A stretch of DNA of 32,997 nucleotides from NCBI GenBank assembly GCA_022615275.1, contig JAKEHA010000328.1:1-32997 (forward strand), in the 5' to 3' direction. The notes beneath the pieces were generated by a model. That model was not told the DNA's origin, made no database searches, and was given only the letters and a program-made list of their open reading frames with translations. The translations under genes were made by a program, and so were the position numbers. This stretch comes from Candidatus Latescibacterota bacterium. GTDB taxonomy: Bacteria; Krumholzibacteriota; Krumholzibacteriia; WVZY01; JAKEHA01. Of the stretch, positions 1 through 29,315 are shown in pieces. How positions within the stretch are numbered: the first letter of the stretch is position 1; each line of letters opens with the position of its first letter.

Positions 1-320
1 CGGCGTTCAAACTGCGCGAGGGTATGCCCATCGGCTGCAAGGTGACGCTGCGCGGCGAGCGCATGTACGAATTCTACGATCGCTTGGTCAACCTGTCGCT
101 CCCCCGCATCCGCGATTTTCGCGGCGTGCCCACCAAGGGTTTCGACGGGCGCGGCAACTACACACTGGGTGTGAAGGAACACATCATCTTTCCGGAGATC
201 GACTACGACAAGATCGCCCAGGTCTTCGGGATGGATATCACGATCGTGACGTCGGCGCGGACCGACGAGCAGGCGCTGGCGCTCTTGACGCACATGAAGA
301 TGCCGTTCCGCAAGAACTAA
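1..320 (+). CDS. rplE: 50S ribosomal protein L5, C-terminal part (5' end upstream of window)
   Basis: Frame is open from base 3. Translation [42 protein letters not shown]...FPEIDYDKI is the conserved L5 C-terminal region. It is followed by rpsN-rpsH-rplF as in spc operons. Confidence 0.95.
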
Positions 321-350
321 GCGGTCAACGAGTCGTTTAGAAAGGCAACT

Positions 351-536
351 GTGGCAAAGAAATCCTGGATCGCGCAGACCAAACGGCGCCCGAAATTCAA
401 GGTGCGCGCGTACCACCGCTGCAATCGCTGCGGTCGCTCGCGTGCGTATCTGCGCCGCTTCGGCATCTGCCGAATCTGCTTCCGCGACCTCGCCCTGCAG
501 GGCGAAGTCCCGGGAGTCGTCAAGGCTAGCTGGTAG
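351..536 (+). CDS. rpsN: 30S ribosomal protein S14, short zinc-binding type Z (61 aa)
   Basis: GTG start. [61 protein letters not shown] has CxxC...CxxC. Its position between L5 and S8 is canonical. Confidence 0.95.
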
Positions 537-544
537 AGTTTACG

Positions 545-648
545 GGCGGAGTACGTCGAGCGTTCTCCGCTCAGGTCCTCGCGCGAGACACAATATGGTG
601 TCGTATCGCGCTGCGGAAATCGCGTCGAACGTCTCGACGCACTCCGCC
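545..648 (+). repeat. Structured intergenic repeat, copy 1 of 2 (long imperfect hairpin filling the rpsN-rpsH spacer); candidate cis-acting RNA element
   Basis: The 70-nt core 561-630 matches 9235-9304 at 65/70 positions. The outer arms 545-560 and 633-648 are complementary at 15 of 16 positions. The element is transcribed with the operon on the + strand. Confidence 0.85.
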
Positions 649-668
649 TACGGTAGGAGATAAAGACA

Positions 669-1067
669 ATGGCGATGACAGATCCGATTGCTGATTACCT
701 CGCGCGGCTGCGTAACGCGGCGGACGCCAGGCACAAGTACGTCGACGTGCCCGCGTCGCGCGTGAAGGCGCAGATGAGCAAGCTATTGCTCGACGCCGGG
801 TACGTGAGCGGCGTCAAGTACATCGAGGACAACCGGCAGGGCATGCTCCGCATCTACCTCAAGTACACGAGGAACAAGGAGAGCGTGCTGCAGGGCTCGC
901 GCCGCGTGAGCCGCGCCAGCCGCCGTGTGTACTCGCCCAAGAAGGGCTTGCCGCGCGTGCTGGGCGGATACGGCATCGCCATCGTATCCACGTCGCAGGG
1001 CATCCTGACCGACGTCGAGTGCCGCAAGCGCGGCATCGGCGGCGAAGTCATGTGCGAGATCTGGTAA
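669..1067 (+). CDS. rpsH: 30S ribosomal protein S8
   Basis: MAMTDPIADYLARLRNA...GGEVMCEIW is a typical S8 sequence. AGGAG lies upstream of the ATG. Confidence 0.97.
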   Translation: MAMTDPIADYLARLRNAADARHKYVDVPASRVKAQMSKLLLDAGYVSGVKYIEDNRQGMLRIYLKYTRNKESVLQGSRRVSRASRRVYSPKKGLPRVLGGYGIAIVSTSQGILTDVECRKRGIGGEVMCEIW

Positions 1068-1075
1068 GGAGAGCC

Positions 1076-1621
1076 ATGTCGCGAATCGGAAAACAGCCCG
1101 TGAAGATCCCGGCCGGCGTCACGGTCGCCATCGAAAAGACCAAGCTGACGGTGAAGGGTCCCAAGGGTACGCTTTCGCTGCCGGTGCCGGCGGGTTGCTT
1201 GGTGGCGCAAGAGGGCGCCGAAGTGGTCGTCAAGCGCGCGAGCGAAGAGAAGCAGGTGCGCGCGTCGCACGGCTCCACGCGAGCGCACATCGCCAACATG
1301 GTGCGCGGCGTCACCGAGGGTTTCTCGAAGGATCTCGAGATCGTCGGCGTCGGCTACAAGGCCGAGGCGAAGGGGAAGTCGCTGGTGCTGACGATCGGTT
1401 ATTCGCACCTGGTCGACTTCAAGATTCCCGAGGGGATCACCGTCGAGACGCCGGAGCCGACCAAGATCAAGGTGAGCGGCGTCGATCGCCAGCGCGTGGG
1501 CCAGGTCGCGGCCGAGATTCGCGCGGTGCGCGGACCGGAACCCTACAAGGGCAAGGGAATCAAGTACGTCGACGAGCACATCGAGCGCAAGGCCGGCAAG
1601 TCGGCGGCGAGCGGCGGCTAG
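1076..1621 (+). CDS. rplF: 50S ribosomal protein L6
   Basis: The ATG at 1076 (MSRIGKQPVKIPAGV...) is preceded by AAGGAG. The longer track ORF from 1019 overlaps rpsH and is unlikely. PEPYKGKGIKY motif present. Confidence 0.95.
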   Translation: MSRIGKQPVKIPAGVTVAIEKTKLTVKGPKGTLSLPVPAGCLVAQEGAEVVVKRASEEKQVRASHGSTRAHIANMVRGVTEGFSKDLEIVGVGYKAEAKGKSLVLTIGYSHLVDFKIPEGITVETPEPTKIKVSGVDRQRVGQVAAEIRAVRGPEPYKGKGIKYVDEHIERKAGKSAASGG

Positions 1622-1639
1622 TCGACGGGAGGCGTCATC

Positions 1640-2122
1640 ATGGAGAAAAAATTCAAGAAGGTCGAAGACTACAAGCGCTGGCGTCGCCACAAGCGCGTGC
1701 GCAACCGCGTCGTGGGCACGCAGGAGCGCCCGCGCGTGTGCGTGTTTCGCAGCAACCAGCACATCTACGCCCAGTTGATCGACGACGAGACCGGTCGCAC
1801 GCTCCTGTCGGTGTCGAGCCTCAAGATGGAGGCGCCGGCGGCGAAGAAAGCGGAGGCCAAGGCCGAGAAGGCGGAAGCCAAGGCCGAAGGGAAGAAGGGC
1901 GGCAAGGCGGCCAAGGCCGACAAACCGGCCAAGGCCGAGAAGGGCGCGGCGTCGGTGGGCGGTAAGAAGACCGCTCTCGCGCGCGAAGTCGGTCGCTTGC
2001 TGGCCGAGGCGGCGCAGGCCAAGGGGTTCAAGAAGGTTGCGTTCGATCGCGGCGGGTACTTGTACCACGGCCGCGTGGCGGCGCTGGCGACATCGGCGCG
2101 CGAGCATGGGCTCGATTTCTAA
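1640..2122 (+). CDS. rplR: 50S ribosomal protein L18 with internal Lys/Ala/Glu-rich insertion
   Basis: [17 protein letters not shown]... and ...[26 protein letters not shown] are conserved L18 blocks. About 45 low-complexity residues lie between them. Confidence 0.95.
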
Positions 2123-2158
2123 TCGACGCGCAAGCGGAATGATTCGGAGGACGAACTA

Positions 2159-2854
2159 GTGGAAACCGGAAGCAACGAACGCACACCGACCGCACCGACG
2201 ACGCCGGCCGTGCCGAGCGATCGCCCCGCACGCCCCGGCCGCGGAGGCGGAGATCGCGGAAGAGGTCCACGCGGCGGCCAGGGCGGCGGACAGGGACGCG
2301 GAAAGGACGACCGCGGACGGCGCGGCGGCCCGCGCGATCGCGATCGCGAGCGCGGCGGCCCCGAATACATCGAGACCACCGTCTACGTCAATCGCGTGGC
2401 CAAGGTGGTCAAGGGCGGACGCCGTTTCAGCTTCAACGCGCTCGTATGCGTGGGTGACGGCATGGGACGGGTCGGGATCGGGCTCGGCAAGTCGAACGAA
2501 ATCAGCGACGCCATTCGCAAGGCGGGCGAGAACGCGAAGCGCTCGATGGTTCGCATTCCCCTCCAGGGCGGCACCATTCCCTACCAGGTGTACGGGAAGT
2601 TCGGGGCCGGCAAGGTGATCCTGAAGCCCGCGACACCGGGTACCGGTGTGATCGCCGGTGGCGCCGTGCGCGCCATCATGGAGTCCGCGGGTGTCCGCGA
2701 CGTTCTCGCGAAATCGCTCGGCTCGACCAACCCGCACAATCTGATCAAGGCCACCATGACCGCCTTGCAGCAGCTCGAGAGCGCCAAGGACGTCGCCAGG
2801 CGGCGTGGCATCTCCATCAATCAGTTGTTCGGAATCGAGGCGAAGAATGGCTAA
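2159..2854 (+). CDS. rpsE: 30S ribosomal protein S5 with Arg/Gly-rich N-terminal extension
   Basis: GTG start. The conserved core [25 protein letters not shown]...[19 protein letters not shown] is preceded by about 58 extra R/G/D/P-rich residues. Confidence 0.93.
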
Positions 2855-3032
2855 GACGATTCGCATCACGCAGATCAAGAGCGTCATCGGCGTGCCGCCG
2901 TTGCACAAGAAGACCATGACGGCGCTCGGGTTCCGGCGCACGTACCAGACCGTGGAGAAGGCCGACACCCCGCAGGTGCGCGGCATGATCCATCAGGTGC
3001 GCTACCTCGTTAGAGTCGAGGAGGGCAAGTAA
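2847..3032 (+). CDS. rpmD: 50S ribosomal protein L30
   Basis: The ATG at 2847 gives [31 protein letters not shown]... (61 aa). It overlaps the rpsE end by 8 nt. Confidence 0.9.
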
Positions 3033-3034
3033 CC

Positions 3035-3478
3035 ATGCGACTCGGAGAACTCAAGCCCGCCGCGGGCTCCAAGAAGAAGCGCAAGCGCATCGGGTGCGGT
3101 CCGGGCTCCGGCCACGGCAAGACGTCGACGCGCGGTCACAAGGGGACCCAGTCGCGCACCGGCAACACCAAGAACGCCTGGTACGAAGGCGGCCAGATGC
3201 CGCTCCAGCGCCGCTTGCCCAAGCGCGGGTTTACCAACATCTTTCGGATCGGCTACCAGGTGATCAATCTCGGCGACCTCGATCGCTTCGACGCCAACGC
3301 GACCGTCGACATCGACGCGCTGCTCGAGAAGGGTCTTATCCGGCACCTGAACAATCCGGTCAAGCTTTTGGCGGACGGCGAGCTCAAGAAGCCGCTCACC
3401 ATCAAGGTGCACGCCGCCAGCAAGAAGGCCAAGGAAGCGGTGGAGAAGGCGGGCGGACAGGTGAACCTCGTCGGCTAG
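3035..3478 (+). CDS. rplO: 50S ribosomal protein L15
   Basis: MRLGELKPAAGSKKKRKRIGCGPGSGHGKTSTRGHKG... is a typical L15 N-terminus. Confidence 0.95.
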   Translation: MRLGELKPAAGSKKKRKRIGCGPGSGHGKTSTRGHKGTQSRTGNTKNAWYEGGQMPLQRRLPKRGFTNIFRIGYQVINLGDLDRFDANATVDIDALLEKGLIRHLNNPVKLLADGELKKPLTIKVHAASKKAKEAVEKAGGQVNLVG

Positions 3479-3508
3479 ACGGGTTCTCTCTGATCGTTCT
3501 TTGACAAT

Positions 3509-4822
<1,314 letters not shown>

Positions 4823-5497
4823 ATGAACCTGGTGCTGTTCGGGCCCCCGGGATCCGGGAAGGGCACGCAGGCGGAGCGCCTGCGGAACAAATGGAAGCTC
4901 CGGCACATTTCGACCGGAGACCTCTTGCGCGAAGCCGTCGCCGCGAAGAGCGAACTCGGCCAGAGAGTAGAAAGCGTGCTGGCGTCGGGGCAGTTGGTGT
5001 CGGACGACATCATCTTGGGATTGATGCGCGACGCGATCCTGGCGGTGAAAAAGGACGCGACGCTGTCCGGCTGGTTGCTGGACGGATTCCCGCGCACGGT
5101 CGGGCAGGCGAAGGGGCTGGATGCGCTCCTGGCCGAGACGGGATCGCGCATCGACGCGATCGTCGTCCTGGACGCGACGCGCGACGCGGTGATCGAGAGG
5201 CTCTCGGGTCGGCGGACCTGCACGCAGTGCAAGACCGTCTACCACGTGAAGTACAACCCGACGCGCGTCGACGGAGTGTGCGACAAGTGCGGCGGGAAGG
5301 TGGTCCAGCGCGAAGACGATCGTCCCGAGACGATCGCGAGGCGGCTGGACGTGTACGAAGCGCAGACGCGTCCCATTCTCGCGCACTATGAAGGACGCGT
5401 CGCGACGAACGTGATCGACGGCGATTTGCCGGTCGACGACGTGACGGCGAAGATCGAGCGCGTCTTGCATAGCCCCGGGGGACGGACAGCGGCATGA
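4823..5497 (+). CDS. adk: Adenylate kinase (zinc-lid type)
   Basis: P-loop GPPGSGKGTQ; LID with CTQC...CDKCGG. The start abuts the secY stop. Confidence 0.95.
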   Translation: MNLVLFGPPGSGKGTQAERLRNKWKLRHISTGDLLREAVAAKSELGQRVESVLASGQLVSDDIILGLMRDAILAVKKDATLSGWLLDGFPRTVGQAKGLDALLAETGSRIDAIVVLDATRDAVIERLSGRRTCTQCKTVYHVKYNPTRVDGVCDKCGGKVVQREDDRPETIARRLDVYEAQTRPILAHYEGRVATNVIDGDLPVDDVTAKIERVLHSPGGRTAA

Positions 5498-6237
5498 TCA
5501 TGCTGAAGACGCTCGACGAAATCGACATCATGGAGGCCAACGGCGCCATCGTGGTCGAGTGCTTCGCCCTGGCGCGGGAGTTCATCAAGCCCGGGCGCAC
5601 GCGCAAGGAGTTGGACGCCGCGATCGAGAAGCTGATCGTCGCGCGGGGCGGGAAGCCGGCCTTCAAGGGCTTCCACGGCTACCCCGCGTCGACCTGCATC
5701 TCGGTCAACGACGAGGTCGTGCACGGGATCCCGGACGAGCGCGCGTTCCAGGAAGGCGACTTGGTCGGTCTCGACATCGGCGTCTTCAAGGACGGGTACT
5801 ACGTCGATTCGGCGCGCACGATCCCGGTCGGGCGTGTCAGCAAGGACGCGGAGAAGCTGCTCGAGACGACGTGGGACGCGCTCGAGAAAGGGATCGAGCA
5901 GGCGCGACCGGGCAACCGGCTGACCGACATCTCGCACGCGGTGGAAGTGCGCGCGCGCAAGAGCGGTTTCGCGGTGGTGAGATCGCTGGTGGGTCACGGC
6001 ATCGGCAAGCGCATGCACGAAGACCCGCAGGTGCCCAACTTCGGACCGCCCCACCAGGGGCCCGTGCTGGAGGAAGGCATGGTGCTCGCGATCGAGCCGA
6101 TGGTGAACGTGGGAACCGCCGACGTGTTCACGCTCGAAGACGGCTGGACCATCGTCACGGCGGATCGCAAGTTGTCGGCCCACTTCGAAGACACGGTGGC
6201 CGTGACGAAGGACGGCCCGCGGATCTTGACGCGCTAG
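5494..6237 (+). CDS. map: Type I methionine aminopeptidase
   Basis: ATGA overlap with adk. Metal-ligand blocks DIGV..DGYYVD, VGHGIG and LAIEPM are present. Confidence 0.95.
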   Translation: MIMLKTLDEIDIMEANGAIVVECFALAREFIKPGRTRKELDAAIEKLIVARGGKPAFKGFHGYPASTCISVNDEVVHGIPDERAFQEGDLVGLDIGVFKDGYYVDSARTIPVGRVSKDAEKLLETTWDALEKGIEQARPGNRLTDISHAVEVRARKSGFAVVRSLVGHGIGKRMHEDPQVPNFGPPHQGPVLEEGMVLAIEPMVNVGTADVFTLEDGWTIVTADRKLSAHFEDTVAVTKDGPRILTR

Positions 6238-6252
6238 GGGACGAAAGGAAGC

Positions 6253-6471
6253 ATGCCCAAAGACGACAGTATCACCGTAGAAGGGACCGTCGTCGAGGCG
6301 TTGCCGAACACGATGTTCCGGGTGGAATTGGCGAACAAGCACATCGTGCTCGCCCACGTGTCCGGCAAGATGCGTATGCACTTCATCAAGATCCTGCCCG
6401 GGGATCGAGTGACCTTGGAGATTTCCGCATACGATCCGACCAAGGGTCGCATCGTGTATCGATACAAGTAG
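6253..6471 (+). CDS. infA: Translation initiation factor IF-1
   Basis: [41 protein letters not shown]... (72 aa) is near-universal IF-1 sequence. Confidence 0.97.
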
Positions 6472-6480
6472 AGGAACGTC

Positions 6481-6594
6481 ATGAAAGTCAGAACGTCGAT
6501 CAAGAAGATTTGCCCGGACTGCAAGCTCATCCGGCGCAAGGGCGTGTTGCGCGTGATCTGCAAGCACAAGCGCCACAAGCAGCGTCAGGGCTAG
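6481..6594 (+). CDS. rpmJ: 50S ribosomal protein L36 (37 aa; below the ORF-track cutoff)
   Basis: Hand translation gives [37 protein letters not shown], followed by TAG. It sits between infA and rpsM as expected. Confidence 0.92.
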
Positions 6595-6622
6595 GCCCGG
6601 CGCTAGGAGCCAGAGGAGAACA

Positions 6623-7003
6623 ATGCGAATCGCAGGCGTGGACATTCCGAACGAGAAGCGCATCGTCATCGCGCTCACGTACATCTACGGCATCGGCCCG
6701 AAGTCGGCGGAGACGATTTGCAAGAAGGCCGGCATCAGCCCCGAGACGCGTGTCAAGGCCATCGGTGAGGACCAGGGCATCAAGCTGCGCGGCATCATCG
6801 AGAACGATTTCAAGGTCGAGGGCGAGTTGCGCACGGAGTTGAGCTTCAACATCAAGCGCCTGATCGACATCAATTGTTATCGCGGACGGCGCCATAGATT
6901 GAATCTGCCGGTCCGCGGGCAGCGCACTCGCACCAACGCGCGCACGCGCAAGGGCCCCAAGGTGCGTCCGGGCGTGGGCAAGAAGAAGACCCCGTCCAAG
7001 TAA
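6623..7003 (+). CDS. rpsM: 30S ribosomal protein S13
   Basis: [25 protein letters not shown]... is typical S13. Confidence 0.97.
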
Positions 7004-7046
7004 GAGGACTCGCGACGCGTAACGCGTTCGCCAAGGAGGAATTCGT

Positions 7047-7457
7047 TTGACGACCAACAAACCGGCCACGGGCGGCAAGCGCCCGGCCAGCAAGAAGAAG
7101 CTCCGCAAGGTGGACGCGTACGGTGTCGCGCACATCAAGTCGACCTTCAACAACACCATCGTGACCATCACCGATTCGACGGGGGCCGTGGTGTCGTGGG
7201 CGAGCCCGGGCATGGTGGGTTTCAAGGGATCGCGCAAGAGCACGCCGTTCGCCGCCCAGCTGGCGGCCGAGCGCTGCGCGCGCGAGGCGCTGGAGTTGGG
7301 AATGCGCAAGGTGGAAGCGTGGATCAAGGGACCGGGTGCGGGCCGCGAGGCCGCCATCCGGTCGCTGCGCGCGGCGGGGCTCGAAGTGACCGCGGTCAAG
7401 GACTGCACGCCCCAGCCGCACAACGGATGCCGTCCGAGAAAGAGACGGCGCGTGTAG
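7047..7457 (+). CDS. rpsK: 30S ribosomal protein S11
   Basis: TTG start 7 nt after AAGGAGG. The conserved core is [18 protein letters not shown]...[11 protein letters not shown]. Confidence 0.93.
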
Positions 7458-7485
7458 CCCGAGGGGCTACCCGCTTGGAGGATGA

Positions 7486-8115
7486 ATGGCTAGGTATCGC
7501 GACGCGAAGTGCAAGCTGTGCCGTCGAGAGGGCGAAAAGCTCTTCTTGAAGGGCGACCGTTGTTACTCCAACAAGTGCGCCATCGAGAAGCGCAACTCCC
7601 CGCCGGGCCAGCACGGTAAGGCGCGGGTGAGAAAATCGTCGAAGTACAACGTCCAGCTGCGCGAGAAACAGAAGCTGCGCAAGACCTATGGCTTGCTCGA
7701 ACGGCAGTTCCGCAATTACTTCCATAAGGCGGCTGCCACCAAGGGCATCACGGGTACCACCCTCTTGCAATTGCTCGAGCGGCGTCTGGACAACGTGGTG
7801 TACCGGCTGGGCTTCACGAGTTCGCGGGCCCAGGCGCGCCAGCTCATTCGTCACAACCATTTCGAGGTCAACGGCAAGAAGGTCAACATCCCGAGCTATC
7901 TGGTATCGCCGGGCGACCGCATTGCCCCGCACGGGAAGAGCCGCGACCTGTTCATCATTCGCGAGGCGATCAAGAACGTCGACGCTCGCCAGGCGGTCTC
8001 GTATCTCGACCTCGACACCAACAAGCTCGAGGGAGTCTTCACCGAGATTCCCAGCCGCGACGTGATCCCGGTTCCGGTGGACGAGCAACTGATCGTCGAG
8101 CTCTACTCGAAGTAA
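7486..8115 (+). CDS. rpsD: 30S ribosomal protein S4
   Basis: [31 protein letters not shown]... is followed by an S4 RNA-binding domain. Confidence 0.96.
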
Positions 8116-8162
8116 TCACCCGCGGACCCCTTGGGGTTATCGCAGGCAGGAGGAACGGAAGC

Positions 8163-9212
8163 ATGAAATGGCGTAACCTATTGATGCCGAAGGAGATCGT
8201 TCGCGACGACGCGACCGCCACCCCGACCAACGCGCGCTTCATCGTGGAGCCGCTGGAGCGGGGCTTCGGTCTGACCCTCGGCAACGCGCTGCGGCGCACA
8301 CTGCTCTCGTCCATTCAGGGCGCGGCGGTGTCGGCGGTCCGCATCAAGGGTGTCTTGCACGAGCTCTCGAACATCCCCGGTGTCGTCGACGACGTCACCG
8401 ACGTGGTGCTGAACCTGAAGCAGCTCGTGGTCGTGATGCACAACGACGAGCCCAAGTTCCTGAAGCTCAAGGTCAGCAAGCAGGGGCCGATCAAGGCCGG
8501 CGACATCACCGAGGATCCGGATATCGAGATCGTCAACAAGGACCTCGTGCTCTGCACGGCGTCCGAGAACGTCGAAGTCGAGATGGACATCCTGGTCGGT
8601 CACGGGCGCGGGTACGTACCCGGCGAGACCCACGACCTCGGCGACTACGACATCGGCCTGATCCCGCTGGACTCGAATTTTTCGCCCATCCGGAAGGTGG
8701 CGTACACGGTCGAGAACACGCGCGTCGGCCAGCGCACCGACTACGATCGCTTGATCTTCGAGATCACGACCAACGGGAGCGTCACTCCCGAGGACGCGCT
8801 CGGCTACGCGGCCAAGATTCTCAAGGATCACATGGTCCTCTTCATCAAGTTCGACGAAGCGCCCATGGAGGCGCAGGAGCCCGTGGTCGACGAAGAGCGC
8901 GACCGCTTGCGCGAATTGCTCGGCCGGAGCGTGGAAGAGTTGGAACTGTCGGTGCGCTCGGGCAACTGCCTGCGCCGTGCCAACATCAAGACCCTCGGCG
9001 ATCTGGTTCGCCGCAGCGAAGCCGAGATGCTCAAGTACCGCAACTTCGGCAAGCAGAGCCTGAAGGAGATCACCGAGATTCTCTCCGGCATGGGCCTGGG
9101 CCTGGGCATGGACATCGACGCGCTCTTGGGCGGTCGCGCGCCCAGGCCCGCCGTTCCCGCGGCCCCCACTGCGGAAGACGAGTCCGAAGTGGTCATGGAA
9201 GAGAACGGGTAG
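8163..9212 (+). CDS. rpoA: DNA-directed RNA polymerase subunit alpha
   Basis: 349 aa. The N-terminal domain contains FIVEPLERGFG.TLGNALRR. The C-terminal domain contains ELELSVRSGNCLRRANIKTLGDL. Confidence 0.97.
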   Translation: MKWRNLLMPKEIVRDDATATPTNARFIVEPLERGFGLTLGNALRRTLLSSIQGAAVSAVRIKGVLHELSNIPGVVDDVTDVVLNLKQLVVVMHNDEPKFLKLKVSKQGPIKAGDITEDPDIEIVNKDLVLCTASENVEVEMDILVGHGRGYVPGETHDLGDYDIGLIPLDSNFSPIRKVAYTVENTRVGQRTDYDRLIFEITTNGSVTPEDALGYAAKILKDHMVLFIKFDEAPMEAQEPVVDEERDRLRELLGRSVEELELSVRSGNCLRRANIKTLGDLVRRSEAEMLKYRNFGKQSLKEITEILSGMGLGLGMDIDALLGGRAPRPAVPAAPTAEDESEVVMEENG

Positions 9213-9215
9213 GGT

Positions 9216-9326
9216 TAATCGGGGTGTCGTGATCCGTTCTCCGCTCAGGTCCTCGAGCGAGACACAATACTGTGTTGTATCGCTCTGCGGAAATCGCGTC
9301 GAACGAATCACGACACCCCTAGATTA
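9216..9326 (+). repeat. Structured intergenic repeat, copy 2 of 2 (fills the rpoA-rplQ spacer); candidate cis-acting RNA element
   Basis: Core 9235-9304 matches 561-630. The outer arms 9221-9233 and 9307-9319 form a perfect 13-bp stem whose sequence differs from the copy 1 arms. TAATC (9216-9220) and GATTA (9322-9326) extend the stem. Confidence 0.85.
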
Positions 9327-9346
9327 GAAGAAAAAGGTAAACGCAC

Positions 9347-9979
9347 ATGAGACACGGCAAAGATCATCGCAAGCTCGGACGCACCGCGTCGCACCGTTAC
9401 GCCATGATGCGCAGCATGGTGACGTCGCTGTTCGCCGCCGAGCGCATCACCACCACCGCGCCCAAGGCCAAGGAAGCCCGGCGCATGGCGGAGCGGCTCA
9501 TCACGCGCGCCAAGAAGGGCCATCGCGCCCACAAGGAAGGTGCGACGGGCGTGGCCCTCGCGCACTGGCGCGAAGCCGGCCGCGTCGTGCGGAGCCCCGA
9601 GGTGCTGCGCAAGCTGTTCGATCAGCTCGCTCCGCTCTACATGGAGCGCAACGGCGGCTACACGCGCATTATTCGGCTCGATCACACGCGTGTGGGTGAC
9701 AACGCGCGCATGGTGATGCTCGAGCTGGTCGACTCCGAAATCAGCAAGAAGCCGTTGATCCGTGGCGAAGCCACGGAAACCCAAGGTGAAGCCGACGCGA
9801 AGTCCGCCAAGGGCTCCCGCGGCAAGAAGAAGGAAGCCGCCGCCGAGACCAAGCCGAAGAAGGAAAAGAAGGCCAAGCCGCCCAAGGTCGCGAAGGAAGC
9901 CAAGCCCGCGAAGACCAAGGCTGACACCAAGAAGAAAGATTCCGGCGCCAAGCGCTCCGCGCCCAAGAAGTCCGGGTAG
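9347..9979 (+). CDS. rplQ: 50S ribosomal protein L17 with long Lys-rich C-terminal tail
   Basis: MRHGKDHRKLGRTASHR...GGYTRIIRL is the L17 core. It is followed by an ~80-aa K/A/E/P-rich tail. Confidence 0.95.
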   Translation: MRHGKDHRKLGRTASHRYAMMRSMVTSLFAAERITTTAPKAKEARRMAERLITRAKKGHRAHKEGATGVALAHWREAGRVVRSPEVLRKLFDQLAPLYMERNGGYTRIIRLDHTRVGDNARMVMLELVDSEISKKPLIRGEATETQGEADAKSAKGSRGKKKEAAAETKPKKEKKAKPPKVAKEAKPAKTKADTKKKDSGAKRSAPKKSG

Positions 9980-9987
9980 CTTACCGA

Positions 9988-11313
9988 ATGTCGCGCGGAC
10001 GCCGAGCCGCAGCAACCGTTACGGTCCTGATCGTCTCGATCTGGCTGGGCTCCACTGTACGCGCGCCACGGTACGAAGCGCCCCTCCCAATGGGGGGGGC
10101 GCTTTCGTTTGTGCCCGCGCCCGCACGCGCCGACACCGCGCTGTTTCCCTCGCCCTATCTCGCAAGCTTGCAAGAGAGCACTCCCATTCTCCCCGACGAC
10201 GAGATTCGCGCGCTGTGGGTGGTGCGCGACGCGCTCACCACCCCCGAGTCCATCGCGCGCCTGGTCGACTTCGCCGTACTGACGCGCACGCACATGCTCT
10301 TCGTCCAGGTGCGCGGTCGCGCCGATTCGTTCTATCGCTCCGCCGTCGACCCCGCGTCCTCCATCCTGCAAGCACCCGTCGCCGATTTCGACCCGCTCGC
10401 ATACCTCTTGAGCATCGCGCGCCGGCACAGTATCGCCGTGCACGCGTGGATCAACGTGTATCTCGTATGGTCCGACATGTCGAAGTCGCCGCCGTCGGGG
10501 CATCTTGCCGCACGCCATCCCGATTGGTTGTTGACCGACTCCCGGGGCGTGCGCATGGACCGCATGCAATCGTCGCGCTGGAAGCGCACGGGTGCCGAAG
10601 GCTGGTTCGTCTCGCCCGGCAGCCGTGCCATGCGCGAGCACATGGTGCGCGTCGTCCACGAACTCGTCACCGAGTACGAGATCGACGGCATTCATCTCGA
10701 CTACATTCGCTATCCCAACCGCGAGCTATCCTTCGACCCGGCGACGCGCGCGGAGTTCGCCGTCCAGTGGGGTGTGGACCCCGCGGAAGCCGCGCATGGT
10801 GACCGCGGCGCGCTCCAGCGCATGATCGGCGCGGGCGCACTCGCGCTCGTCGACAGTCTCTACAACGAGTCGCGCGTGGCCCAAGTCGACAGCATGGTGA
10901 TCGCGATTCGCGCCGCGTGCCGCCACAAGGCGCTCTCGGCCGCGGTAGTCGCGGATCCCTTCACCGCCCGCCACGACAAGGGACAGGACTGGGCACGCTG
11001 GGTCAACAATCGCTGGATGGACTTCGTCGTCCCGATGGGCTACAACTTCCCGCCGCTGGAGCTCGAGCACCGCGCGACCATCTACAATCGCATGGTGGGG
11101 AAGGAACGGTGGCTCATGGGCCTGGGCGTTTTCGACGGCCGCGACGAGTATCTCGCCGAGTCGGTGCAACTCCTGCGCGAAGTGGGTGTCATGGGCTTCT
11201 CGATCTTCTCGTACAACGTGCTTGAGGAGGAAGGCTTCGGCGCGGCGCTGATCGAGGAGGCAGTGCTGCCGCCGGATACGAGCTGGGTGGATGAGGAGTA
11301 CGAGGACGAATAA
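9988..11313 (+). CDS. Glycoside-hydrolase-like family 10 (GHL10/DUF187, YngK-like) secreted protein
   Basis: N-terminal signal-like segment. Blocks RALWVVRDAL, LFVQVRGRADSFYRS, DPLAYLL...HAWINVY and GIHLDYIRYP match my recollection of the GHL10 family. Confidence 0.75.
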   Translation: MSRGRRAAATVTVLIVSIWLGSTVRAPRYEAPLPMGGALSFVPAPARADTALFPSPYLASLQESTPILPDDEIRALWVVRDALTTPESIARLVDFAVLTRTHMLFVQVRGRADSFYRSAVDPASSILQAPVADFDPLAYLLSIARRHSIAVHAWINVYLVWSDMSKSPPSGHLAARHPDWLLTDSRGVRMDRMQSSRWKRTGAEGWFVSPGSRAMREHMVRVVHELVTEYEIDGIHLDYIRYPNRELSFDPATRAEFAVQWGVDPAEAAHGDRGALQRMIGAGALALVDSLYNESRVAQVDSMVIAIRAACRHKALSAAVVADPFTARHDKGQDWARWVNNRWMDFVVPMGYNFPPLELEHRATIYNRMVGKERWLMGLGVFDGRDEYLAESVQLLREVGVMGFSIFSYNVLEEEGFGAALIEEAVLPPDTSWVDEEYEDE

Positions 11314-11481
11314 GCCGACGAAATGTCATAGTACGGCGCCCCGGGACACGATGGACTAGATCGACCCTGGGAGTACTTCCCGGGCGCCGCGTCCACCTCG
11401 GGTCGGCAGACGCTACCGGAGCAAGCAGGTGCACGTGCTACCAGGATGCCGAACGGGCACCACACCCCACGGGATACAATG

Positions 11482-11978
11482 CTAATTCTGGCTCCGGTAA
11501 TGCGACGCTACAAACTCGAGCGGGGGAACATTCGCGATTGGCTCGAGGAGCCGCCGGTTGTTGATCCAATCGATCCACTCCAACGTCCGGAAACTCCGCC
11601 GCGCCAAACTGACGCAAGGGACTCGGCGTTCAATCAGATCGGTCTTGTAGAGCCCAATCACCGTCTCGGCGAGCGTCGTCTCATACGAGTCGCCCATACT
11701 TCCCGCCGAGGGCTCGATGCCGGCTTCCGCGATGCGTTCGGTGTAATGGATCGAAAATACTGCCACCCCTCGATCGCTGTGGTGAATCAACCCCGACATG
11801 TCGCCGCGCGCATGGATCCCTTGCTCCAGTGCATCGAGCGTGAGGTCGGTTTGTAGAGAGCGCGATGCTCGCCAGCCCACAATCGTGGGCGCAACACGTC
11901 GATCACAAACGCCATGTAGACGAAGCCATACCAGTTAGATTGCTCGTCTCGGTGGGCGGCGATGAAGGCCACCATCAC
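11482..11978 (-). pseudogene. IS3-family transposase (OrfB, rve/DDE integrase core) remnant: N-terminally truncated or internally deleted, and frameshifted
   Basis: ORF 11482-11880 reads GWRASRSLQTDLTLDALEQ...HHSDRG...EAGIEPSAGSMGDSYETTLAETVIGLYK...LEWIDWINNRRLLEPI. The upstream piece in another frame (11787-11978) reads FIAAHRDE..WYGFVYMAFVIDV. No OrfA is present. Confidence 0.8.
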
Positions 11979-13309
11979 CTCGGTTTAAGTCGTTCAACCG
12001 GCTGCCGAAAAGCGGCGCCGAACGCGCCGCAATCCCCTGCGATGCCCATGGGGCCGCATGCGCTAACAGGTGGCAAGCATGGCGAGTTCGACTGTAGATA
12101 GAAGTCGTCACTTGCAGCATTACAGAATAGCGGGTCAAGTGATAGGTTGCCCATCGTTCCAGACTGACTGGCGATGCATCCCGTCCAGTCTCCTATTTCA
12201 TTCCCGTAAACGTCAGAACACACGATGGTCACCGCTGGAGGGCCGAGAATCGAGTCACAGTAAACTGGCATGCTGCCCAGGTTAGAGGCCATGATCGTTC
12301 TCTCAAAACTAGTTGACGAGGAAGCTCCGCAGTTGATGGAGCTTCCCTTGCTCGCGCTGTTCCCGTAGAATACACTGGAGCTAATAGTCCCGACCGATGC
12401 CGCATACGCCCAAATCGCGCCGCCATTTTGTCCGCACGCGTTTCGCGCGAACGTGCAACTCTCCAATGAAAACTCACTATTCACGACATCAATGGCACCA
12501 CCATGACTTCCCGCAACGTTGTCGAGGAATACACACCCCATTGCTGCGAGCCGAGCGGGCTCGGCCACAAGGGAGGTCGAGTAGATAGCGCCTCCGCTAA
12601 AGGAGGCCCCGTTCCTTATGAATCGGCAATCCGTCATGGTCACACGTGAGGATAGATTCACGATCGCGGCACCGCTTGCGCTGCTATAGTTGTCCACGAA
12701 CGTGCAAGAACCTAGAACTGGTGATGCTTGCTGGCTGGCACGAATCGCGCCACCTACGTTTAACGCGAAAGTACATGCATTGAACGACGGTGAAGAGGAT
12801 TTGCAATCCACCGCTACATTGCCATGGAGACGAAACACCACGGATCGAAAGGCGGGCGAGCTTCCCTTCTCGCAAGTGATTGCACCACCGCCGCCGACAC
12901 CGTATCCATTTTCGACCGTTACCCCCTCGATTCTTGTTTGGTTAGTCTCTCCACTAGAGAAAAGAAAACCGCGGTGGGGCTCCACGTCATTTCCGACGCA
13001 ATCTATGATGCACAGACTTGGGTCACCGCTCTCAGAGCGAACAAGGATCCGTCGTCCCTTGAGATCCAAGTCGCGGTTGCCACCTCCCACAAACCTGCCG
13101 TTTGCAAGCGAAACAGTATCTCCATTAATCGACGCGTTGATTGCTGCTTGGATTGTCGGATAGTCACCCGTTCCGTCATACACGACTCGAATGTTGCGCG
13201 GATCGCGCAGTACTGGGGGCTTGGTCGGTGGGTCGTCATCGCAACCGATGGCCAAGGCTAGAACGCCGCCCAAGAGCAGGTGGGTATTAAAACGCAACAT
13301 CAAATTCAT
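11975..13309 (-). CDS. Lipoprotein with right-handed parallel beta-helix (PbH1) repeats
   Basis: Signal plus lipobox: MNLMLRFNTHLLLGGVLALAIGC. Repeated C.F..N...GGAI units occur, e.g. CTFVDNYSSASGAAI, CRFIRNGASFSGGAIY, CVFLDNVAGSHGGAI, CTFARNACGQNGGAIW. Confidence 0.75.
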   Translation of the reverse strand: MNLMLRFNTHLLLGGVLALAIGCDDDPPTKPPVLRDPRNIRVVYDGTGDYPTIQAAINASINGDTVSLANGRFVGGGNRDLDLKGRRILVRSESGDPSLCIIDCVGNDVEPHRGFLFSSGETNQTRIEGVTVENGYGVGGGGAITCEKGSSPAFRSVVFRLHGNVAVDCKSSSPSFNACTFALNVGGAIRASQQASPVLGSCTFVDNYSSASGAAIVNLSSRVTMTDCRFIRNGASFSGGAIYSTSLVAEPARLAAMGCVFLDNVAGSHGGAIDVVNSEFSLESCTFARNACGQNGGAIWAYAASVGTISSSVFYGNSASKGSSINCGASSSTSFERTIMASNLGSMPVYCDSILGPPAVTIVCSDVYGNEIGDWTGCIASQSGTMGNLSLDPLFCNAASDDFYLQSNSPCLPPVSACGPMGIAGDCGAFGAAFRQPVERLKPR

Positions 13310-28524: not shown

Positions 28525-28553
28525 TTGACAAGTGGTTAGCAAGATTGTAGTCT
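28525..28553 (+). promoter_or_regulatory. Candidate sigma70-type promoter for tRNA-Asn
   Basis: Perfect -35 TTGACA (28525-28530), 17-nt spacer, weak -10 TAGTCT (28548-28553). It lies about 11 nt before the mature tRNA 5' end. Confidence 0.35.
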
Positions 28554-28564
28554 CTCCGCCTGGT

Positions 28565-28881
28565 TCCTCGGTAGCTCAATGGTAGAGCATGCGGCTGTGT
28601 CCACGACGCAGCGCCGACGGGAGACCGTCGGTGAAAAATCGGGTGAATTCAGGGAAGCCCTTCCAGGGTAATCCTGAGCGAAGCCCGCCGAATGAGAGAC
28701 CAAGTAGGCGGGAACGTGCAGAGACTAGGGGATGAGGACTCTCAACCGATACGCCCCACTAGCGCCCGACACCCTCGCTCGTGTTCAACGAGACGGGTGA
28801 TGAGATAGTCCGAGCCCTTTGGCAACAAAGGGAACCCTCGTAACCGCAGGGTTGTAGGTTCGAGTCCTACCCGGGGAGCCA
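28565..28881 (+). tRNA. tRNA-Asn (anticodon GUU), split gene: exon 1 28565-28598, exon 2 28841-28881 (CCA encoded)
   Basis: Joined exons give UCCUCGG-UA-GCUC-AAUGGUA-GAGC-A-UGCGG-CUGUUAA-CCGCA-GGGUU-GUAGG-UUCGAGU-CCUAC-CCGGGGA-G-CCA, a full cloverleaf. The acceptor has 7 bp including one G-U, the discriminator is G73, and the 5' UCCUC and 3' GGAGCCA ends resemble E. coli tRNA-Asn. Confidence 0.88.
28599..28840 (+). ncRNA. Group I intron (242 nt, no ORF) inserted between anticodon positions 35 and 36
   Basis: The 5' exon ends in U and the intron ends in G. P1 pairs exon GCUGU with intron GCAGC (28608-28612) and has a U-G pair at the splice site. P2 is CCGACGG-GAGA-CCGUCGG. R-like GUGCAGAGACUA and S-like GAGAUAGUCC give P7 GACUA/UAGUC. 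P9 is CCCUUUG-GCAA-CAAAGGG. Confidence 0.82.
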
Positions 28882-29315
28882 TTCTTTTTCTATCGCTTCC
28901 TTCGACGCTCCGACCGTTTTCATTTCCGCTTCTTTGGCGACTCCATCCGCAAGGGTTGCAAAGACTTGTTTCAACTCGACGTGTACCACGAGGGACACGG
29001 CCGACCGAACTTCCCGCCCACCACAACCCCACACGCCCAAAGCCCCCAAACCCCGGACGCAACCAAACCTCGCCAGTTGTCCAACTGGTGAACGTCGGTT
29101 ACGTCGCCACATCACCTGCGCCAGAAACAGTTCGGCGTCCTCCGAATCCCACTTTCCCAGTGTTTCGAAGAACGCCGCCAATTCAATCCCCGCTGTCTTC
29201 ACATCGCATCCTCCCATCCGAACCCTACCAACTAACTAACGTCCAATATCACCTCCTGCTTCATACTCTTGCGTTTCGCCACCGTCAAGGTCGCTGCGTT
29301 CGAAACATCACGTTT

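Follow-up and report, generated by a model that had tools for sequence, protein, structure and literature searches.

The 32,997-nucleotide stretch analysed here (the window) carries two similar long hairpins in the spacers of a ribosomal-protein operon, and the question raised by this locus is whether these hairpins regulate the ribosomal genes that follow them or belong to something of another kind. An earlier note on this DNA had compared the two copies, deduced a common fold preserved by compensatory changes, and argued from it for selection on an RNA or DNA hairpin and against a transposon-like element, with rpsH and rplQ as the presumed targets of regulation.

The first copy (544–649, + strand) lies in the spacer between an S14-like ORF (351–536) and rpsH (669–1067). 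Its outer stem is formed by the 5' arm GGGCGGAGTACGTCGAGCGTTC (544–565), which is paired with 627–648 in the 3' arm GAACGTCTCGACGCACTCCGCC (627–649), where T632 is bulged. Enclosed by these arms are a 5' conserved core block, UC-CGC-UCAGG-UCC-U-C-GCGCGA (566–586), a variable apical part with a GACAC/GUGUC hairpin and a hexaloop (587–605), and a 3' conserved core block, UCGCGC-U-G-C-GGA-AAUC-GCG-UC (606–626); both blocks were near-invariant among 102 distinct sequences. The second copy (9221–9319, + strand) lies between rpoA (8163–9212) and rplQ (9347–9979), has its conserved core blocks at 9240–9260 and 9280–9300, and can be extended to 9215–9327 via TTAATC/GATTAG. Both copies are in sense orientation, just upstream of a ribosomal-protein start codon. 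The minimum free energy (MFE) was −62.9 kcal/mol for copy 1 (z = −6.0) and −57.4 kcal/mol for copy 2 (z = −8.7). When both copies and both strands were considered, z ranged from −6.0 to −9.4, and none of 200 dinucleotide shuffles folded as well.

The two cores (561–631 and 9235–9305) form the longest direct repeat of the window, which holds only these two copies of the element. According to the repeat finder they are identical at 66 of 71 positions (93%), and they differ at 582 (C>A), 596, 597, 602 (C>T) and 610 (G>T). A compensated C>A/G>T pair had been reported with the numbering 584/609; the pair is real, and its actual positions, one to two nucleotides away, are 582/610. The C582–G610 pair of copy 1 becomes A–U in copy 2, where the C>A change at 9256 is compensated by G>T at 9284. 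The other differences were as had been described, C602>T converting a G–C pair of the apical stem to G587·U602 and positions 596 and 597 falling in the apical loop. The arms of copy 2, GGGGTGTCGTGATCCGTTC / GAACGAATCACGACACCCC, are unrelated in sequence to those of copy 1, each pair being self-complementary. The claim of a second copy with compensatory changes and a common fold was therefore borne out by the 93% identical core, the compensated differences and the self-complementary arms.

A species-representative genome collection was scanned with a two-block core pattern, yielding 48 stretches, 24 of them clear relatives. Thirteen copies were located in CAZLLI01 and five in the 'Ca. Latescibacteria' MAG CAVTNQ01, with further copies in CAYXEN01, CAZCQM01 and a 'Krumholzibacteriia' MAG. 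Metagenomes searched with a looser pattern gave 102 stretches, about 97 of which were real. After removal of duplicates there were 103 unique copies, which flank clustering assigned to 65 distinct sites; a single MAG (CAZLLI) held at least 14 copies belonging to several arm classes. Among the loci, the nearest relative of the window was a Krumholzibacteriia MAG (91.6% identity over 6.6 kb), and as far as sampled the element is restricted to Latescibacteria/Krumholzibacteria-type genomes. Plasmid and phage collections and viral contigs gave zero matches to it. No account of such repeats in Latescibacteria was found in the literature searched, and the element is a previously undescribed repeat, about 100 bases long, from a bacterial lineage without cultured members.

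Most of the 65 sites adjoin unrelated genes, for example those for cation efflux, LPG synthase, OmpA-family proteins and MazG. A subfamily at no fewer than 15 unrelated sites shares the arms GGCCGAC...GTCGGCC, with the termini GGCCGAYRCGATCG, and the other copies have unrelated arms; termini such as GGCC...GGCC and GGGCGG...CCGCC were observed. A divergent sub-type (L057, L062, L087, L090, L105, L111, L128, L146 and L149) has outer stems of 24–25 bp, a different apex and the 3' loop GGAUUCGCG. Its flanks are always AGTTTGCCTTACGAGG ... CCTCGCACGGAAAGT, indicating one conserved locus recovered from several metagenomes.

Across the family the element had a median length of 103 nt and an outer stem with a median of 20 bp, variable in sequence and kept in pairing. 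The MFE architecture was the same in nearly every copy. Inward from the outer stem, a 2×2 UC:UC loop leads to CGC:GCG and then to an internal loop (5'-UCAGG/3'-AAUC); UCC:GGA follows, and beyond a U:C mismatch and a bulged U comes GCGCGA:UCGCGC, topped by a variable, dispensable apex. Copies of the '56-nt' core type carry the GACAC/GUGUC apical hairpin, which those of the '48-nt' type lack. The two core blocks are mutually non-symmetric, that is, they are not inverted copies of each other. A 1-nt bulge recurs 5–6 bp from the core; 38 copies have it in the arm 3' of the core and 6 in the 5' arm, and its position travels with the core.

In a model-based alignment of 102 distinct sequences, changes on both sides were detected in all five of the innermost outer-stem pairs and in three pairs of the inner GCGCGA/UCGCGC stem. 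Paired cells made up 96.8%, versus 84% in shuffles and 25–54% with the partners slid. The proposal that pairing and not arm sequence is conserved thus holds for the family, and the GCGCGA/UCGCGC stem was recovered as drawn. The CGUUC/GAACG segment, described earlier as a stem of its own, is indeed paired and covarying, but as the innermost outer-stem pairs all covary it is the inner end of the variable arms and not a separate stem. The proposed UCCGC/GCGGA helix did not withstand the comparison; it showed zero covariation and uncompensated breaks in 19 cells, versus 4 broken cells for a nested CGC/GCG plus UCC/GGA alternative with which it is mutually exclusive. Judged by the aligned sequences, the nested pairing appears to fit the family better, a choice that rests on few events because most of the columns concerned are nearly invariant. 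In the diverged copy L077:1127–1217, a matched UUG/CAA insertion on both strands extends UCC/GGA to UUGUCC/GGACAA, which adds to the case for the nested pairing, as do correlated variants of the loops.

With nested pairing, the two segments that had been taken for unpaired, invariant contact sites would face each other and be partly paired. Their invariance is limited to the two window copies, and family-wide they vary in a correlated manner (5' CUCA with 3' GGA-AA, CUCCU with GGA-AG, and CUCCCG with GGA-GG). When read as the minus-strand transcript, the core (561–631, 9235–9305) has purine-rich loops, tandem GA/AG flanking a GCG/CGC helix, and a 'CUGA' motif. The minus strand was predicted to fold more stably than the plus strand (−69.7 versus −62.9 kcal/mol). 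A resemblance of these minus-strand loops to K-turn/loop-E-like motifs is put forward as an idea only.

Operons of relatives were fetched without use of the pattern, via S8 protein homologues (70–91% identity), and examined by covariance-model search and direct reading. In the S14–S8 spacer this pattern-independent sample contained three sense copies (the window, L158 and L153), three antisense copies (L157, L159 and L161) and six spacers without the element (3 nt in L160, 19 nt in L152, and also L151, L154, L155 and L156). Between rpoA and rplQ the element was sense in the window and in L158 (diverged, 44 bits) and antisense in L159, and the spacer was empty (15–42 nt) in L157, L151, L152, L155, L160 and L161. 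A third ribosomal-operon spacer, S10–L3, carried the element in sense orientation in L157, L158, L100 and L102, in antisense orientation in L008, L064 and L072, and was empty (10 nt) in L161. Filled and empty sites were compared among relatives with 80–91% S8 identity, which included empty S14–S8, rpoA–rplQ and S10–L3 spacers. Orthologues of copy 1 were present in at least 12 other assemblies, and those of copy 2 had the same orientation in L112, L121 and L158 and were flipped in L041/L159; L136 is also among the relatives in which the element is antisense in the spacers of the window copies. The element is an insertion of patchy distribution. Moreover, no palindrome was present at the empty orthologous sites (19 nt in L152, 3 nt in L160, 15 nt in L157), so that the arms are part of the inserted unit.

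Of the 13 sites shared by two or more assemblies, 6 showed both orientations, among them the three ribosomal-operon sites, and the flips were seen between assemblies only. In the S14–S8 spacer of L157, whose S8 protein is 91% identical, the arms are orthologous to those of the window (GGCGGAGTGCGTCGAG ... CTCGACGCGCTCCGCC), and the core together with its 1-nt bulge is inverted. A comparison of L008 with L102 at the S10–L3 site likewise revealed orthologous arms with a flipped core and bulge. Two adjacent copies in opposite orientation were observed in L068:775–1000, within the S14–S8 spacer, and in L006:1518–1753. Solo arms or terminal fragments (GAGCGGAGAACGC..TCGACGCG..) lie beside a full copy in L132 (after 2015–2185), L158:7100–7170 and L159:640–690, the extra piece in L159 being a solo arm. 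In L132 and L158 the full copy is followed by a fragment that equals a flipped-core end joined to a 3' arm, and then by a duplicated ribosome-binding site (TAGGAGAT). The fragments in L132, L158 and L159 look like footprints of local rearrangement. Taken together, flips, paired copies and fragments are signatures of inter-arm recombination and repeated rearrangement, not of a fixed regulatory site.

The element occupies gene 3' ends and intercistronic spacers, with the downstream ribosome-binding site intact. Convergent spacers were more frequent than divergent ones (16 versus 5) and the arms often start within about 10 nt of a stop codon, which places the element at the 3' ends of genes and away from promoter regions. 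With the three operon sites set aside and one count per site and orientation state, 25 were sense and 14 antisense to the neighbouring genes as called by the local frame caller (p = 0.11). A strong sense bias (69 versus 23) was rejected as mostly an artefact of repeated S14–S8 counting and a crude ORF caller.

A scan of window positions 1–12000 gave no terminator- or promoter-like consensus at either copy, and the G+C-rich hairpins are not followed by the U-tract of an intrinsic terminator (TACGGTAGG / TAGATTAG); an intrinsic terminator and a promoter of the element's own were rejected on this basis. No family in Rfam 15 matched the element at gathering or permissive thresholds; in the permissive scan of both regions, the sole hits were sub-threshold, generic long-hairpin matches to RtT on the minus strand (14–18 bits; threshold 45). 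Self-cleaving ribozymes (twister, hammerhead, pistol, hatchet) were likewise rejected, having no Rfam support at E <= 10 and the element being rod-shaped without a matching junction.

When one representative per site was considered, G·U and A·C mismatches in the arms numbered 56 and 38 on the plus strand of the element (p = 0.08), and 46 and 40 on the transcribed strand (p = 0.59). Since G·U is not enriched on the mRNA strand, nothing indicates that the arms are kept paired specifically as RNA in host transcripts, and the earlier suggestion of selection on the RNA hairpin was not supported in this form. The inner stems had 57 G·U versus 10 A·C on the plus strand, events that are few, shared by descent and not independent. 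The G·U excess on the element's own plus strand and in the inner stems leaves room for a strand-specific RNA role.

Among 12 orthologous S14–S8 copies the mean pairwise difference was 0.03 in the 5' core block and 0.00 in the 3' block, 0.23–0.26 in the arms, 0.40 in the apex and 0.30–0.34 at flanking third codon positions. Most copies were ascertained by exact-match patterns lying within the core, which inflates core conservation, so that the contrast between core and arms is real and its size is overstated; copies found independently of the pattern (L153, L158 rpoA–rplQ, L161, L077 and L006) were more diverged, at 22–54 bits. All 12 S14–S8 orthologues keep 18–21 of about 21 arm pairs despite an arm divergence of about 25%. 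This compensated evolution is too extensive for independent neutral change, and can be explained either by selection for the hairpin, as DNA or RNA, or by templating of one arm on the other during inversion or repair.

The earlier premise of a regulator of rpsH and rplQ corresponds to a strand-specific cis-regulatory RNA leader bound by S8 or L17. Ribosomal-protein leaders, such as the S8 site of the spc operon, resemble the window copies in that these lie inside the spc/alpha operons, upstream of a start codon and in sense orientation, and the surplus of G·U over A·C on the plus strand of the inner stems would also suit a leader. But such leaders have a fixed site and orientation, and a fixed position in sense orientation was not what the relatives showed. 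The element is antisense at the same spacers in L157, L159, L161, L136 and L041 and lacking from them in L160, L152, L157 and others, most of its 65 sites adjoin unrelated genes, and no Rfam ribosomal leader matches it. A leader is thus hardly credible, most of its case having been undone by the orthologous sites that are flipped or empty. As the element is scattered over many gene ends and is present, absent or flipped at the same site, it is not a dedicated rpsH/rplQ regulator or leader. The same dispersal over 65 sites, the empty spacers in close relatives and the occurrence in either orientation overturn the deduction that the element is not transposon-like. Another possibility considered was that only the core is mobile and inserts at the apex of pre-existing, locus-specific palindromes, the arms being target DNA. 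In its favour, locus-specific arms are orthologous between genomes that differ in the type of core (48 or 56 nt) and in its orientation. It is very improbable all the same: a bulge at a conserved position within the arms travels with the core, 15 or more unrelated sites have arms in common, and the idea was rejected because the empty sites have no palindrome.

An RNA role independent of orientation is a more substantial, though still unlikely, explanation. The stem in host mRNAs would act as a 3'-end stabiliser or as an intercistronic processing site of the RNase III type, and the host would retain the element for that reason, as has been proposed for REP, ERIC and Correia elements. This would be consistent with the location at gene 3' ends and in intercistronic spacers upstream of an intact ribosome-binding site, the preference for convergent spacers, the extremely stable hairpins on both strands and the three sites inside highly expressed ribosomal operons. 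A generic stem leaves the near-invariance of two asymmetric core blocks in both orientations unexplained; neither the balance of G·U and A·C on the mRNA strand, nor the close relatives without the element at the same spacers, nor the missing U-tract signature is in its favour. A host function at the level of DNA was judged rather improbable. Here a chromosomal protein (nucleoid-associated protein, topoisomerase or site-specific recombinase) would bind the core or recombine it, and the flip would be an inverton-like programmed inversion. Conservation of the core whatever its orientation to genes, the bounding of the inverted segment by inverted repeats and an arm mismatch pattern without an RNA signature agree with this. 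No linked recombinase or invertase gene occurs in the loci examined, the invertible segment measures only about 70 bp and contains no promoter-like signal, and both orientations occurred between genomes only, not within one population, all of which speaks against it.

These results suggest, with a probability of roughly 0.55, that the hairpins are copies of a non-autonomous, REPIN/MITE-like, invertible palindromic repeat, the core of which is its recognition module. The asymmetric core would be recognised by a protein acting in trans to copy or maintain the element; the simplest candidate would be an HUH/RAYT-like or recombinase-type enzyme whose substrate is a DNA hairpin or cruciform and not the terminal sequences. 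The arms would stay complementary because the hairpin is required, because the arms template each other during inversion or repair, or both. Transcription in either orientation would add a very stable stem-loop to the mRNA, which may be tolerated, and perhaps is useful as a 3' end or processing barrier, but would not be the cause of core conservation. The asymmetric core is thus most likely conserved because a protein recognises it when the element is propagated or maintained. Further observations count against this reading. Cores have long stayed intact at orthologous sites, which a purely selfish element would not be expected to show unless gene conversion renews its cores or the host gains from its presence. 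In addition, classical MITEs and REPINs have conserved ends, whereas arm sequence is not preserved across this family.

Evidence on mobilisation was also sought at the insertion sites. Among 15 well-delimited copies with the GGCCGAC...GTCGGCC arms, a flank repeat of at least 3 nt was present in 1 (null mean 2.5), and the dinucleotides flanking the 15 sites were not conserved. While filled and empty orthologous sites exist, as expected of a DDE-type MITE, the lack of a target-site duplication and of a flanking dinucleotide argues against a classical element of that type. The pattern would be compatible with HUH/Y1-type or recombinase-type mechanisms that act on hairpins. No mobilising enzyme, RAYT included, was identified in the 8–20-kb stretches around copies, and neither recent identical copies nor a transposition intermediate could be shown, which counts against a mobile element. 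An ORF of 381 aa with a C-terminal HNH nuclease motif and atypical codon usage (L050:6298–7443, − strand; same locus as L054) was the sole gene bracketed by two copies, which are co-oriented. It matched Pfam HNH at 27.5 bits and NCBIfam IscB at only 23.8 bits (cut-off 175), and is not a Y1 transposase. It was not taken for the mobilising enzyme, the occurrence being single and the IscB match weak and at motif level; the bracketing may be a coincidence or a lead to the mobilising enzyme.

REPINs are REP doublets that form hairpins and are associated with RAYT transposases, and compensatory changes across the hairpin are described as common in them (Bertels & Rainey 2011, PMC3116915). The present element resembles them as a dispersed extragenic hairpin of about 100 nt (REPINs occur in tens to hundreds of copies) with compensatory changes, which persists at orthologous sites; like REPINs, which are believed to be mobilised in trans, it has no classical target-site duplications. 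A REPIN is bounded by two invariant REP 16-mers in inverted orientation around a less conserved middle, whereas the element has variable ends without inverted REP sequences, an asymmetric conserved centre and no GTAG tag. REPINs are therefore the nearest analogue in behaviour, with the opposite layout. GTAG/CGTC-tagged REPs are 20–40-bp palindromes that carry an unpaired tag of four nucleotides at one end. They are found downstream of coding regions, for the most part where neighbouring ORFs are unidirectional or convergent, and are plausibly transcribed; the CGTC type has been reported in FCB-group phyla without a known transposase (Di Nocera et al. 2013, PMC3733652). The element shares the location downstream of coding regions and the plausible transcription, but membership was rejected on account of its length of about 103 nt, the missing terminal tag and the complex conserved interior.

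Several other known systems were compared. ERIC/IRU and Correia (NEMIS) elements are MITE-like imperfect palindromes of 100–150 bp, co-transcribed with flanking genes in either orientation and polymorphic (filled or empty) between relatives, and their RNA hairpins can affect mRNA processing. They have conserved terminal inverted repeats and TA target duplications. The element is likewise an imperfect palindrome of transcribed intergenic regions, found in either orientation and polymorphic between relatives; unlike ERIC and Correia elements it has no target duplication, and its termini are shared within one subfamily but not throughout the family. Integron attC sites recombine as a folded single strand and lie in cassette arrays next to intI. 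As in these sites, structure is conserved over sequence along most of an imperfect hairpin, and extrahelical or bulged bases give polarity. The attC sites have conserved outer R''/R' boxes and a variable centre, whereas the element shows the opposite pattern and occurs as solitary copies at gene ends.

The conserved asymmetric centre with drifting, compensated ends sets the family apart from most bacterial palindromic repeats and is the reverse of the arrangement in MITEs and REPINs, suggesting recognition that is independent of terminal sequence. On a speculative reading, which is a long shot, the element would represent a new class of hairpin repeat recognised by its structure and asymmetric internal-loop module, with a dedicated putative enzyme copying and flipping the centre ('flip-flop') and orientation serving as a heritable switch on intercistronic expression in Latescibacteria/Krumholzibacteria. 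If so, the two orientations would put either a pyrimidine-loop RNA or a tandem-G·A (K-turn-like) RNA into ribosomal-operon mRNAs.

From compensatory changes between two copies alone, a regulatory RNA cannot be deduced; at this locus the hairpin that covaries is one of DNA, repeated, polymorphic for insertion and invertible. The family is a marker of an uncultured lineage and occupies three spacers of the main ribosomal-protein operons. Its natural filled, empty and flipped alleles are material for studying the effects of long hairpins on polycistronic expression and for the search for the enzyme.

Three further features of the window were recorded. An Rfam group I intron (28589–28832, + strand; 94.9 bits, full length), unrelated to the element and the only Rfam match of the window at gathering thresholds, is flanked by tRNA-like sequences (about 28553–28596 and 28845–28893) with the anticodon stem TGCGG/CCGCA and the 3' end ...GGGGAGCCA, and looks like an insertion in the anticodon loop of a tRNA gene. 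ARAGORN called no tRNA in the intact window and one after in-silico removal of the intron, the identity of which depends on the junction chosen. Direct repeats with a 21-nt periodicity (families D2/D3) at 1834–1969, inside a ribosomal-protein ORF of the spc operon, encode a low-complexity stretch rich in Lys, Ala and Glu. Directly after rplQ lies a GHL10-family (PF02638) gene (9988–11313), which has the same position in every fetched operon of the lineage (L151–L161).
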